From NCBI RefSeq assembly GCF_011045215.1, contig NZ_CP049201.1: 64,000 nucleotides of DNA. One strand, written 5' to 3'. The position numbers are program-made. This document shows, piece by piece, positions 57,001-64,000 of this stretch. The DNA is from Escherichia coli. Lineage in GTDB: Bacteria > Pseudomonadota > Gammaproteobacteria > Enterobacterales > Enterobacteriaceae. The first letter of the stretch is position 1; each line of letters begins with the position of its first letter.

Positions 57001-60000
57001 ATATGGGATTCTTTCTATTTGCAACACTGGAGAATCATACGTCGGGCTCTTTTCGTGGTCTTCCCAAAGAAGGGTTATTGATGATGAAGGGATTATTTTA
57101 TTACTCTGTTATCAGTATACTGACTGTAGGATATGGTGACATAGTTGCCGTCATCTGGCCAATCCGTAATGCAACCATTCTGGTTATATTACTTGACTGC
57201 GTCTATTCTCTGGTATTTATTGCACGTATTGTTGGTAGTTTTTCCGCACAAAAAAACGAACAAACGTAAAAATCTCCGCCCGTATTCTACCGGACATAAC
57301 TATTCGCATAATATCCATTCCTTCGGATTTTTCCTGCCCCCGAACACGCTAAAAAACCGGGCTTTCATACCCAGTAATCAGAGCTCCAGGAGAAAGCCCG
57401 GATACAATATATTATCACCAGCCCCCTGTGCCAGGTAATTGTTTTTCCACACGTATACTGGCTCGTTCTTTTTCCAGCTGACAAATCTGTCGATTTAACG
57501 CATTACGCCGGGATATATCTGTCACTCCTCCCAGCTGACTTCGCAATTCATCAATTTTCATCTGCAAAACCAGTTTTCTCTGTTGCACTGACTGCATACG
57601 CTCAACGGATAATATGACTGAGCGACTGACGCTATCTCCCTGCTTCCTGAGTACATCCGCATGAGTATCCATATTAGCTGAAAGCGTCTTCAGAGCCGCT
57701 TTCCCACTTTCTGATTTCAGTTTACCAATTTCCATACCAGGCTCCGCTGCAACACCAGCACCAGTCACCAGAATTACCACTATCGTAAACAAAGTCGGTA
57801 ATATTACGTTCCTCTTCACTATAGCTTAGCCTCCGGCACAATAAGTCTATCATCGCCTGAGCCATCACCCGTGACGTAAGCGCGAAAAAAGTCAGCAGTA
57901 TGACAATGACTCATGCAAAGATACACTAAAAAAAGCCGCTACCAACAGCCAATAACAGCACCAGACTTGTCGTCATCAGAAAATAAACATAATCACATAA
58001 CCTTTTATTAATATAACAATCAATACGATAATGGCAACAGGCGACCAGCATACTGTATTTCCGCCGGAATAATCAACAGTAAAAAAACGCACCTGTCCTT
58101 GACCCACGATATTCAGACAGTCGTTGTATCTTAAGTTGATGTTACCCGCTGACGTCGATATTCCCTTGGTGAGAGATAACCTAACGCACTATGCGGATGG
58201 TTTTCATTGTAATACTCGATTGCCACTGCAAGGTTATGCAATGCCGTTCTTGCGTATTCCGCTCTATTCGATCACGGATTTGCATCGAAGTCCGATCAGC
58301 GATTCGCATACTTTCGATCAACCGGGAACTTAACTTTTTCTACCGCTTTTTAACTCGTTTTTTCGATGCTTTCCACTACCGGGGGGTTTTTCCTCAGGGA
58401 CTCTCCCTGAAGGACCAGTCTGTGTGAGTTATGTACCAGTCTGTCCAGGATGGCATCTGCTGTTGTTGGGTTCTCCATCAGACCATGCCATTTATCTACC
58501 GGGAACTGGCTTACCACTATCGTGCTGCTTTGACCGTAACGATCTTCTATGAGCTCCAGAAGGTCATTACACTGGGCGTTACTTAACTGTTCCAGCCCCA
58601 GATCGTCCAGGATTAGAAGCTGTATTTTTTGCAACTGTTTCAGATATTTCAGCCAGCTGCCATCAACACGTCCCTGAGTCAGTTCTTCCAGTAATCGCCC
58701 GGTTCTACAGTACCGGACGCTGTGTTTCTGTCTACATGCCTGTTCGCCCAACGCATTGGCTATCCAGCTTTTGCCGCATCCTGTCGGACCGGTTATCAGC
58801 AGGTTTTTCCTGTGGATTATGTAGTGACCGTTCAGCAGCTCCCTCATCTGTTCAGCCCGCAGACCTCTTGAGGCCGGATAGCGCAGCCCTTCCGGTGTTG
58901 CCTGGTATTTCAGACCGGCATTTTTTCTCAACCGTGCCACACGATTGGTTTCTCTGCTCAGAAGCTCGTCATCAACCAGCTGCGTCAGCCTTTCCTCGAA
59001 CGACAGTTCGTCGTAAGTCTGAGGCGTTTCCCGCTGCCGTATCAGGCTCCCGGCCATCGCCGGGAGTTTCAGTTGGGTCAGTTTGTTTAACAGATTATCA
59101 CTCATTCGGTTGTTCCTTCTGTCAGTGGTAGTAGCCAGGACCACGCAGGTTTTCATGCTCTGAAGCATATGCCGGATGTTGTTCGCCCTGGCGGGATAAC
59201 GGAAGCTCAACGTTATCCCGATGATGACGCAGCAGATTGTCGATAAAGCGTCTGTCCGGGGCGTTATAGTGCAGGGCAACGTAACAGGCCTTTTCCAGCC
59301 GTTCCGGGCCGTATTTTTTCTGAAGTGCCAGCAGACCCAGGACTGCACGGTAAGCCAGCTCCGGATGGGGTTTGGCTTTCAGCATGGATTCAACCACCCG
59401 GCCTGTGGACGGACCTGTACGGTTTCCCTGCTCGATAAGGCGTTCCGGTGTCCATGTCCCATGCCGCCGGTGGCGTTCTGGCATGTGAAGCGGATTGGTT
59501 GTGTGTTTATATTCATGTGTGCTGCGCGGATGTTGCGCCACACACTGCCCCTTGTGCCAGAGTTGTACCACCGACTGCCCCGCCTTCAGTGACAGACGCT
59601 GACCGACCAGTTCGTGTGGAACGGAGTACCAGTGACGGGCATATTCAACGTGATAGTCAGGGCCAACCTTCACGGCTTTGTATTCCGTGTATTCATAAGG
59701 TGCCAGAGGCAGCGGAGAGAGTGCTGGCGCATCCAGTATGCGGAAGCGTTCTGCACGGGTTTGATTGCCGTACCCCTTCATTGGCCGGTTATTCATGTCT
59801 GTCAGTAACTCCCGAAGGCGCGCATTCAGCGCCCTGAGCGTGTGGAAGGTTTCATTACGGATGCGGGCAAGAAGCCATCGTTCGACGATGAGGACGCCGT
59901 TTTCTGCTTTTGGTTTATCTTTAGGTTTGCGTGGTCGGGCCGGGATAATAACCGTGCCATAGTGCTCAGCCAGCGCCTGATAACTGTCGTTGATGACAGG

Positions 60001-63000: not shown

Positions 63001-64000
63001 ACCAGATGTTTTCATCCGTTGTGCCAGTTGCGCACGCGACACGCCCAGAATACGGCTTACCAGGGTTATTCCTTGTCCGTTGGCAACAAGGGCGCATGCG
63101 CTATCCATTTTTGCGACCGACCATACTCCACCGCTTCTTTGAGGATCTCAACTTCCATGTTTTTTTTACCCAGCAAGCGCTGTAACTCTTTTATTTGTTT
63201 TATAGCGGCAGCCAGTTCTGAGGCAGGAACGACATCCTCTCCGGCAGCAACAGCAGTGAGACCTCCTTCCAGATATTGTTTTTTCCACTTAAACAACAGG
63301 CTGGGTTGAATACCATGCAAACGCGCCACATGGGACACCGTCATACCGGGTTCCATTGTCTGCTGAATAATGGCGATTTTTTCCTGAGGAGTTTTACGTT
63401 TACGAAGCTCCTGCCCCAGCAAGATTCCAGTCATCTCAAAATTAGAACTAGTGTTAGACATATATCCAAGCCTATCTCTTATTTTAAGATACATCCACTG
63501 TCTGGCGTTTCAAGGGGCCGATTCAAAAACCGAATGTCAGTGGGTGTCTTGGTCACGATATTATACAGGGTGGTGGAGCCAACGATAAAAGCAGGCAATT
63601 GAAGAGTAATACAGGGTAAACGGGGTGATTGAGAGGGACACCAGATATATCGCGCAACTTCCATTGATCAGTAATATGTTTCGTACTTTTCCTGAAAAGC
63701 TGGGGGGCCAGATGAAAGGAAGTTTATTAAAGCGGGGCGGGTATTAAAAGTTGACAATAACGAGAAATAAACAGCTTCTCTGAATTCTGGATGGATATGA
63801 TTTTCATAATTTATATTGTTTATGAGTTCTGACAACACTTCCGGGTAGGCAAAACATTTTTTCAGAAAATGAACAGGCCCGTCGTAGGTTGGTTTTTCCC
63901 CTGTATGGCGATGGTGTATATAATGGTTTACTGTATCTTCATTCAGAGGTACTTCAGTGAATTTATCTGAAAATGTAAGAAAGCTTGTCATCAAAGATGG

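Follow-up and report, generated by a model that had tools for sequence, protein, structure and literature searches.

The window analysed here, a stretch of 64,000 nucleotides of Escherichia coli DNA, contains a three-level nest of insertion sequences (ISs) within an IS-rich genomic island, and the nesting is right at every level, with ordinary transposition at each. An IS2-group element of the IS3 family is interrupted by ISSso4, an IS21-family element, which is itself split near its left end by a Tn5/IS50-type element of the IS4 family. Inverted-repeat pairs (I1, I4, I9 and I6) bracket the three elements, and removal of the inner elements does restore contiguous full-length outer ones. The best overall explanation, to which we assign a probability of about 0.85, would comprise four steps: residence of the IS2-group element at the locus, entry of ISSso4 into its orfB gene, entry of the IS4-family element into ISSso4, probably as the last of the three insertions, and a secondary loss of 46 bp beside it.

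The outer element, ISEc48-like, occupies positions 58094-63525 on the minus strand, its ends having been set by alignment with five copies from different loci, and its own length is 1336 bp. Its 5' part (62342-63525, minus strand) bears the left terminal inverted repeat, with the tip at 63525 (TGAATCGGCCCC... read on the minus strand), and its 3' part (58094-58250, minus strand) bears the right one, with the tip at 58094 (TGTCCTTGACCC... on the plus strand). These repeats of 42 and 41 bp are long and imperfect, begin with TG and have the common core CAGACA...TATCTTAA; TG-starting terminal inverted repeats and a length within 1.2-1.5 kb are traits of the IS3 family. The orfA gene (63066-63461, minus strand, 131 aa) is intact and overlaps orfB, which starts on the minus strand with an ATG at 63108, breaks off at the junction (62342) and resumes at 58131-58250 (minus strand) with its final 39 codons and the stop codon (translation RTALHN...VTST*). 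The minus-strand ORF at 62287-63108 consists of the interrupted orfB and a foreign tail: the IS2-like sequence stops at 62342, and translation then runs through the ISSso4 tip into the IS4 end, which together supply the 18-aa tail as well as the A codon of 'VRTA' and the last base of its T codon. The original prediction had OrfB ending prematurely after VRTA at about 62300; the truncation is there, but the junction of IS2-like and ISSso4 sequence lies at 62341/62342. The missing C terminus, which had been placed at 58265-58128, was found on the minus strand at 58250-58131, with its junction at 58250/58251; the limit of 58265 was too far because 58251-58265 already belong to the ISSso4 terminal repeat. 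The span first given for the whole structure, 58128-63434, describes the coding extent of the outer element and not its true ends at 58094 and 63525. Every item listed in that prediction was present, with coordinates off by 5 to about 90 bp.

In silico excision of 58251-62341 together with one copy of GTTCT gave a 1336-bp IS2-group element in which both genes are open (orfA, 131 aa; orfB, 293 aa, in the -1 frame) and which matches full-length copies in 456 E. coli records. Partly overlapping frames of this kind, orfA with a helix-turn-helix and orfB with a DDE/rve integrase core in the -1 frame, characterize the IS3 family. OrfB scored 202 bits against the IS3-family model (cut-off 160), and the best NCBIfam matches were IS2 TnpB for OrfB (392 bits) and IS2 TnpA for OrfA (199 bits), both below the subfamily cut-offs. 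Nucleotide identity to copies annotated as ISEc48 is 86-88%, and 86.8% to the copy in L006 (loci used for comparison are numbered in this way), which is 1336 bp long, as is the reconstructed element. Under the ISfinder convention, copies of the same IS share at least 95% amino-acid or at least 90% nucleotide identity. Since the nucleotide identity is only 86-88%, the outer element is best regarded as a distinct relative of ISEc48 and not as ISEc48 itself, names being taken from PGAP and source annotations. A clean target duplication, which in the IS3 family is short (3-5 bp), was sought at the ends of this element in the window and none was found; the flanks, GTTTT and GGTGC, differ, and a second GTTTT lies 5 bp farther outward. 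The insertion of the element itself is therefore without a footprint, and a later rearrangement may be the cause. The unmatched flanks bear on the evidence for that insertion event, not on the identity of the element.

The middle element, ISSso4, extends on the minus strand from 58251 to 62341 (4091 bp including the inner IS). Over 2563 bp, its body (58251-60813, minus strand) shares 97-99% identity with copies to which PGAP gave the name ISSso4, from Shigella sonnei pINV, E. coli plasmids and E. albertii plasmids. The S. sonnei pINV copy (annotation: ISSso4 family) is 97.1% identical over 2563 bp and that of plasmid pRM13745-2 is 99% identical; the body is a mosaic in which different ISSso4 sequence types are combined. 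Across the inner IS, the terminal 38 bp of the istA-proximal (left) end (62304-62341, minus strand) match the same terminal stretch of intact ISSso4 in L004, L005 and L034. Both genes of the element are intact on the minus strand, istB (58350-59105, 251 aa), coding for the helper ATPase, and istA (59122-60657, 511 aa), coding for the IS21-family transposase. They match the NCBIfam models transpos_IS21 (287 bits, cut-off 160) and IS21_help_AAA (256 bits, cut-off 200), and the Pfam domains are rve and Mu-transpos_C_2 in IstA and IstB_IS21 in IstB. The tips have the form TG...CA (TGCGTATT... and ...TTTTGCA), the istB-distal one starting at 58251 (TGCGTATTCC...) and the left one ending at 62341. 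A perfect 5-bp target-site duplication, GTTCT, made by the ISSso4 insertion, stands on both sides (58246-58250 and 62342-62346), and at six other sites the outer duplications of ISSso4 are 5-7 bp long. The ends are of IS21 type, with a duplication within 4-8 bp and several direct repeats at the 23-bp spacing that is described for such ends (PMC10122671).

These repeats are carried by the motif TGCCAAAYCGTGATCGA, which occurs three times in the 64 kb, at 58268-58284 (minus strand, 2 mismatches), 60785-60801 and 62307-62323, where 0.05 occurrences are expected; none of 100 shuffles reached three. A second repeat of the istB-distal end lies at about 58291-58308. A degenerate repeat precedes repeat a, at 60763-60779. 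The intact left end of ISSso4 has four full copies (a to d) at 23-bp spacing, of which the window keeps a (60785-60801) and d (62307-62323). The motif of about 20 bp had originally been reported at 58268 (inverted), 60790 and 62311; its three matches were recovered, the latter two at shifted positions, and its interpretation as an IS21 multi-repeat end split by the IS4 element agrees with the four 23-bp-spaced copies of intact ISSso4.

The innermost element (60814-62303, minus strand, 1490 bp), whose ends were set from copies in other contexts, has a pair of imperfect terminal inverted repeats of 17-19 bp (CATACCCTTACCCACAAGT / CATATCCTTACCCATAAAT) and lies in the left end of ISSso4, 38 bp from the tip, between repeats spaced 23 bp. 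Its transposase gene (60821-62236, minus strand, 471 aa) is intact, as are istA and istB, so that the complete istA-istB pair and the IS4-family transposase expected between the two pieces of orfB are all accounted for. The transposase has the Pfam domains Tnp_DNA_bind, DDE_Tnp_1 and Dimer_Tnp_Tn5 and scores 347 bits with NCBIfam transpos_IS4_3 (cut-off 160). The DDE residues and the Y-(2)-R-(3)-E-(6)-K signature of the IS4 family are present; in an alignment to Tn5 transposase they correspond to the D in LQDTT, the D in VSDREGD and the E in RWQIEVFFKVLK, and the Y, R and K positions line up too. The two transposases are only distantly similar (E = 2e-25), and the 19-bp end CATACCCTTACCCACAAGT agrees at 14 of 19 positions with the Tn5 outside end, CTGACTCTTATACACAAGT. 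One member of its 90% protein cluster carries the source annotation 'transposase of ISEc13', and from that single annotation the element is probably ISEc13. Among 100,044 species-representative genomes, no relative of the transposase was closer than 45% amino-acid identity, and exact-pattern scans for the IS4 end gave no match in species-representative genomes or viral contigs.

The order of the first two insertions can be read from the empty site. E. coli 52F4 and C5 have an uninterrupted IS2-like copy at the same locus, with flanks 99% identical to those of the window and the sequence ...ATGCCGTTCTTACATTCGG... at the insertion point. GTTCT is present once at the uninterrupted site in L001, and related bovine E. 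coli strains share the island with the uninterrupted IS2-like copy. The IS2-like element was thus resident before ISSso4, and the predicted arrangement, an IS2-like element split by an IS21 element that itself carries the IS4 element, finds support both in this empty site and in the 1336-bp element restored by excision. The resident, about 87% identical to ISEc48, then received ISSso4 in orfB some 20 codons past the catalytic glutamate, an insertion that duplicated GTTCT and replaced the 38 C-terminal residues of OrfB. The site at which ISSso4 inserted is a marker specific to this strain: among 5426 complete E. coli genomes, none has a place that covers at least 80% of the region.

The IS4-family copy in the window has a hybrid context. 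Its left flank (TGATGCCAA, 60805-60813) is of the a/b type and its right flank (GAATGCCAA, 62304-62312) of the c/d type, repeats b and c (46 bp) are gone, and this loss has left flanks that disagree at 2 of 9 positions. All four repeats are kept in L034, an IS4-free ISSso4 of the window's sequence type, so the loss came after the IS4 insertion. It would be a secondary deletion of b and c beside the element, arising through slippage between repeats after an insertion at c/d, or through a 46-bp local hop and subsequent repair between repeats. A pre-existing two-repeat ISSso4 as the target was rejected, given that the right flank is GAATGCCAA and not TGATGCCAA and that the IS4-free copy of the same type has four repeats. 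The same hybrid flank occurs in L001, 1.57 kb away in the same island and with the IS4 element in the opposite orientation, and in L035, in another ISSso4 variant at another site, reflecting either recurrent deletion or mobility of hybrid composites. For the difference in orientation between the window and L001, a precise inversion of the IS4 element in situ was considered, and both routes to it are excluded: recombination within its terminal repeats (the mismatched repeat position 5 travels with the element) and excision followed by re-insertion at the same site (the 9-bp flanks remain unequal). Independent insertions, or local hops with repeat-mediated deletion, would explain it better.

In complete E. 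coli genomes the IS4-family element is carried by 33 of 5426, is single-copy in nearly all of these, and lies in all 33 in the left end of ISSso4. Twelve other copies of 1490 bp have 0-1 nucleotide differences from the one in the window, yet their ISSso4 hosts are mosaic and have up to 97 differences in 2555 nucleotides. Perfect 9-bp duplications were found at junction c/d (GAATGCCAA; L002, L003, L030 and L033), at junction a/b in both orientations (TGATGCCAA; L031 and L032) and outside ISSso4 (CGATGTTAT; L024, L029 and L036), and in GCA_014105865.1 three identical ISSso4 bodies carry the element at a different position or orientation in each. Identical copies in diverged ISSso4, the use of two junctions and of both orientations, and a site outside ISSso4 together identify it, at the level of sequence comparison, as a recently active, target-selective IS.

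In the intact left end of ISSso4, the gaps between GATC motifs measure 18, 19, 20 and 19, and only the two N19 gaps are hit; junctions a/b and c/d are the only ones that fit GATC-N5-[9 bp]-N5-GATC, and the L024 site, which is unrelated, shows this GATC spacing too. The innermost IS appears, then, to home repeatedly on a short repeated motif at the ISSso4 end. We tentatively propose, at rather less than even odds, that the ISEc13-like element is a sequence-selective 'IS of an IS', recognizing a site of about 27 bp (GATC-N5-[N-R-A-T-G-Y-Y-A-W]-N5-GATC) that is present twice in the IstA-repeat array, inserting there in either orientation, splitting the terminal IstA site from the next and so immobilizing ISSso4. 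As the two GATC motifs are Dam sites, methylation-dependent target choice is a possibility. A preference for IS21 ends shared by related IS4 elements was considered and found no support, a 74%-identical relative lying near ompC with no IS21 sequence; distant relatives in other phyla were uninformative on this preference. In a literature search, ISEc13 was not found mentioned together with ISSso4, and mentions of ISSso4, ISEc48 and ISEc13 were of the list type only.

The nesting by itself does not fix the timing of the IS4 step. The element could have entered ISSso4 before or after the latter landed, because IS4-carrying ISSso4 copies exist at many other sites (at 10 or more further genomic locations, where every copy has a separate outer duplication). 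The left tip of the window ISSso4 retains repeat d alone, the next repeat being 1490 bp away, so that two adjacent IstA repeats are lacking at that end. The IstA of IS5376 needs two complete direct repeats per end, 23 bp apart (PMC10122671), a requirement measured for IS5376 in vitro with pre-cleaved ends. By analogy, the window ISSso4 is probably crippled for transposition, from which the IS4 element would be more likely to have reached its position after ISSso4 had landed. We therefore lean towards a third step in which the 1490-bp Tn5/IS50-type element would enter the left end of the resident ISSso4 and split its IstA-binding repeats. The alternative, which we regard as distinctly less likely, is that a ready-made composite arrived: ISSso4 already had the IS4 element and the 46-bp loss, and IstA and IstB transposed the 4091-bp unit by its two intact 38-bp tips, so that locally the composite would have followed the IS2-like element, the IS4 event having taken place earlier and at another site. 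The shared location in all 33 IS4-bearing genomes fits such an arrival, as do the perfect duplications around IS4-carrying ISSso4 copies (GTTCT, CAGCAT, CCCTGAC, GAGTG, GTTGCT and TGCAGT) and an old, 96%-diverged composite (L003 type) that shows a long-inherited association; moreover, the window and L001 share the hybrid flank and an ISSso4 end variant (ACCGTG) at sites 1.57 kb apart, each empty in the other strain. Besides the single IstA repeat at the left tip, however, the window and L001 have identical IS4 copies in ISSso4 bodies with 52 differences over 2555 positions, the window body is nearer to an IS4-free plasmid copy (28 differences), and an identical derived composite at two sites was not found among the loci compared. 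The single three-copy genome, where the IS4 position or orientation differs in all three copies, likewise speaks against composite arrival, and the window and L001, with their opposite IS4 orientations, cannot be simple copies of one composite. Of the predicted order of three events, the precedence of the IS2-like element over ISSso4 stands, the IS4 element as the last is a leaning, and at least one further event, the 46-bp loss, has to be added.

Our initial reading of a single IS4 entry followed by spread of the composite rested on the same site in 33 of 33 complete genomes and on the separate outer duplications; it was downgraded by the second junction, the use of both orientations, the site outside ISSso4 and the identity of IS4 copies in diverged hosts. 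A single chance hit of ISSso4 with later hitch-hiking, and no target preference of the IS4 element's own, would account for an element that in complete genomes is nearly always single-copy and always with ISSso4. It is very improbable in view of the perfect 9-bp duplications at two repeat junctions and in both orientations (L030, L031, L032 and L018), the independent insertion outside ISSso4 with the same flanking GATC geometry, and the identical IS4 copies within ISSso4 hosts that differ by 2-4%. Juxtaposition without transposition, by an assembly chimera or by homologous recombination among dispersed IS copies, we consider extremely improbable. IS-rich regions do tend to be misassembled, the IS2-like element has no clean duplication, and recombinant structures exist elsewhere, L028 and L037-L039 having the IS4 element between two inverted 38-bp ISSso4 tips; but in the window the two pairs of inner junctions fit with single-base precision, GTTCT is perfectly duplicated, excision of ISSso4 reopens the orfB frame, and the same junction types recur in independent assemblies.

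The nest itself is routine, nested ISs being frequent in E. coli islands and the families of all three elements well known; its exact ends and duplications allow correct annotation where automatic annotation leaves orfB split. Of wider interest is the by-product that a Tn5-type element appears to prefer the transposase-binding repeats of ISSso4 as a landing site. If confirmed, this would offer a simple example from nature in which one mobile element targets another and probably inactivates it, and for a relative of Tn5 it would define a target rule that can be tested.

Compared with IS2 (1331 bp) and ISEc48, the outer element has about the same length, overlapping orfA and orfB, IS2 TnpA and TnpB as best models and long TG-starting repeats, but it differs in its lack of a clean 5-bp duplication, its interrupted orfB and its scores below the IS2-specific cut-offs. 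The middle element shares istA and istB, TG...CA tips, 23-bp-spaced direct repeats and 5-7-bp duplications with ISSso4 and with its relatives IS21, IS5376 and IS100; unlike reference ISSso4, it has its left end split by a foreign IS of 1490 bp and has lost two of the four full repeats there. With the IS50/Tn5 group, the innermost element has in common the DNA-binding, DDE and dimerization domains and a 9-bp duplication. The target preference of Tn5 follows a weak consensus only, and the ISEc13-like element would be much more selective. Target-selective ISs are known, IS1397 and ISKpn1 inserting into REP/BIME palindromes and IS4 itself at few hot spots, and in these, as in the ISEc13-like element, a short structured repeated motif is struck repeatedly at exact phosphodiester bonds. 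In contrast to them, the target of the ISEc13-like element is the transposase-binding repeat array of another mobile element, and insertion there probably disables the host IS.

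The minus-strand IS3-type orfB ends prematurely, its ORF closing with unrelated residues, and the missing C-terminus (39 aa) is found 4 kb away at 58250-58131, near the approximate position given in the original prediction. Between the two orfB pieces the ORF list and domain matches place an istA/istB pair and a 471-aa IS4-family transposase, all intact, as had been proposed, and the recurring motif is also borne out: the 17-nt TGCCAAAYCGTGATCGA occurs three times (58268-58284, inverted; 60785-60801; 62307-62323), with 0.05 matches expected by chance. The predicted nesting holds, and its bounds, which were approximate, are replaced by junctions at 58250/58251 and 62341/62342 within an outer element running from 58094 to 63525.

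The outer element was rebuilt by removing 58251-62341 and one copy of GTTCT, its ends being taken from an alignment of five copies at unrelated loci. The result is 1336 bp long, with imperfect terminal repeats of 42 and 41 bp, an open orfA (131 aa) and an open orfB (293 aa) in the -1 frame, and hundreds of E. coli copies align with it over its full length. At 86.8% identity to an ISEc48-annotated copy, and with proteins that best match IS2 TnpA and TnpB, the element is, judging by sequence, an IS2-group relative of ISEc48 and not ISEc48 itself. IS3-family elements are expected to leave a duplication of 3-5 bp. We looked for a clean target duplication flanking the outer element in the window and found none; GTTTT repeats 5 bp past its right end. 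The direct repeats flanking two other copies of the IS2-like/ISEc48 group are unusually long: 15 bp (CTGATGTTCCTGTTA, L008) and at least 10 bp (CTGATTAAAA, L007).

The middle element (58251-60813 and 62304-62341) is assigned to ISSso4, of the IS21 family, by 97-99% identity to ISSso4-annotated copies on Shigella sonnei pINV and on E. coli and E. albertii plasmids, by its TG...CA tips and by a perfect 5-bp duplication, GTTCT. Neither IstA (511 aa) nor IstB (251 aa) is truncated. Intact ISSso4 measures 2638 bp and has four full and one degenerate copies of the motif, about 23 bp apart, at its istA-proximal (left) end, where the repeats are called a to d with d next to the tip, and two copies at the other end. 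ISSso4 copies carrying the IS4-family element each have their own outer duplication at different targets; these hosts are mosaic sequences, with up to 97 differences over 2555 positions. On a metagenome contig (L018, 79-1201) the tip of such a copy interrupts orfB of another IS3-family element, with an ISEc48-like copy 4 kb from the tip, and at L002 ISSso4 lies inside an IS66 element; insertion of ISSso4 into other insertion sequences seems to be recurrent. An old, 96%-diverged ISSso4 with the IS4-family element, truncated at the equivalent of window position 59314, lies beside the afa/dra adhesin operon in about 27 human E. coli genomes (L003, 1691-4345). Its annotation makes it part of a 2655-bp 'IS66 family tnpC' gene, apparently either a chimeric ORF or an artefact of annotation.

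The inner IS4-family element (60814-62303; 1490 bp, imperfect terminal repeats of 17-19 bp) encodes a transposase that has the DNA-binding, DDE and dimerisation domains of the Tn5 type and retains the DDE and Y-R-E-K residues; in one source, a protein of the same 90% cluster bears the name 'transposase of ISEc13'. At L002 and L003 the element occupies the exact c/d junction, 38 bp from the tip, between the two copies of a perfect 9-bp duplication, GAATGCCAA. The window copy has GAATGCCAA on its right (62304-62312), and on its left (60805-60813) TGATGCCAA, as at the a/b junction; the ISSso4 around it lacks repeats b and c (46 bp). As an IS4-free ISSso4 of the window's sequence type (L034) has all four repeats, the 46-bp loss came after IS4 insertion. 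Two routes could explain it: insertion at c/d and later slippage between repeats a and c, which are nearly identical, or movement from a/b to c/d, the donor break being closed as repeats annealed. A 74%-identical relative near ompC (L010, L019, L021), not associated with IS21-type sequence, shares exactly the 26-nt terminal sequence and is otherwise degenerate.

The IS4-family element is present in 33 of 5426 complete E. coli genomes, always in the left end of ISSso4. We then looked up the exact transposase in a much bigger collection and read the junctions. In GCA_014105865.1 three ISSso4 copies with identical bodies (L030, L031, L032) carry the element at c/d in orientation A, at a/b in orientation A (duplication TGATGCCAA) and at a/b in the opposite orientation, B; on the L018 contig it lies at c/d in orientation B. 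At one unrelated site (L024, L029, L036) it lies outside ISSso4, within a perfect duplication, CGATGTTAT. At L028 and L037-L039 (two genomic places) it stands between two inverted 38-bp ISSso4 tips, no outer duplication being found at these structures, which look like recombination products of A and B composites (ISSso4 copies with the element on board in opposite orientations). L037-L039 have the transposase gene in two pieces, one of 312 aa and the other of 155 or 183 aa, under the name 'shiE' in some sources. All 1490-bp copies differ by 0-1 nucleotide. A single ancestral insertion spreading as a composite is ruled against by the varied junctions and orientations, the non-ISSso4 site and identical IS4 copies in diverged hosts. 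Multiple junctions and orientations, together with near-identical copies in diverged mosaic hosts, argue for recent activity of the element and for a strong target preference.

All three perfect sites have one geometry, GATC-N5-[9 bp]-N5-GATC, and one core, N-R-A-T-G-Y-Y-A-W. Successive GATC gaps in the intact ISSso4 end are 18, 19, 20 and 19, and the element occupies only the two N19 gaps; among the loci compared, none had it at the b/c junction (N20) or at the junction before repeat a (N18). One other GATC-N19-GATC site in the window, at 17164, is unoccupied.

The original prediction read the order of three transpositions from the nesting. Its first step is seen directly in the bovine E. coli strains 52F4 and C5, which carry the same island (96.8-99.4% identity over aligned stretches) with the IS2-like element uninterrupted, the site reading ...ATGCCGTTCTTACATTCGG...; ISSso4 must therefore have arrived after the IS2-like element, whose empty site is visible here. 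In the window the orfA of the IS2-like element is open, with a run of eight A (63150-63170 region). The run is one A shorter (A7) in the 52F4 copy, which carries the annotation of a frameshifted pseudogene; ISSso4 thus appears to have entered the intact copy. Nesting by itself does not date the IS4 step. We place the probability that it came last, as predicted, at about 0.6, favoured by the identical IS4 copies in diverged hosts, by an ISSso4 body with 28 differences to an IS4-free plasmid copy versus 52 to the IS4-carrying ISSso4 of 52F4, and by the single repeat beside the window's left tip, given that the related IS5376 IstA needs two complete 23-bp-spaced repeats per end for integration in vitro (PMC10122671).

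That ISSso4 reached the IS2-like element already carrying the IS4-family element is a doubtful alternative, to which the own duplications of many IS4-carrying ISSso4 copies nevertheless point. So does the recurrence of the hybrid flank (a/b-type left, c/d-type right) at L035 and in 52F4 and C5 (L001, 3002-7092), where ISSso4 and the IS4-family element, with the same 46-bp loss, lie 1.57 kb upstream of the IS2-like element within their own 6-bp duplication, CAGCAT, the inner element being oriented opposite to the window's. Empty sites are reciprocal: the window is empty at 56680-56686, the L001 site, and 52F4 and C5 are empty in the IS2-like element. An a/b-type composite retains three tip repeats, so such a composite could also have come in first and been remodelled at its present site.

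Just upstream in the window lies an IS66-family remnant (54646-55755: tnpA, tnpB and truncated tnpC), whose tnpC in 52F4 has an extra IS110-family insertion absent from the window. A 160-aa ORF at 55859-56341, annotated in relatives as an LptA-like periplasmic protein (LptD_N domain), stands alone among the island's IS remnants, an odd location for a lipopolysaccharide-transport paralogue. Furthermore, 36641-47642 matches at 96.8% identity the two-partner-secretion region of 52F4, which encodes a hemagglutinin-repeat protein, a ShlB/FhaC-type transporter and a toxin-activating acyltransferase; this match suggests that the window is a virulence- or competition-type genomic island.

A by-product is modestly interesting: an ISEc13-like relative of Tn5 seems to home to the transposase-binding repeats of ISSso4, as read from junction sequences at a small number of independent sites; no paper among those searched mentions such homing. 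Nested insertion sequences are commonplace in E. coli islands, and the nest described here, correctly recognized, is an ordinary one in which all three elements belong to well-described families.
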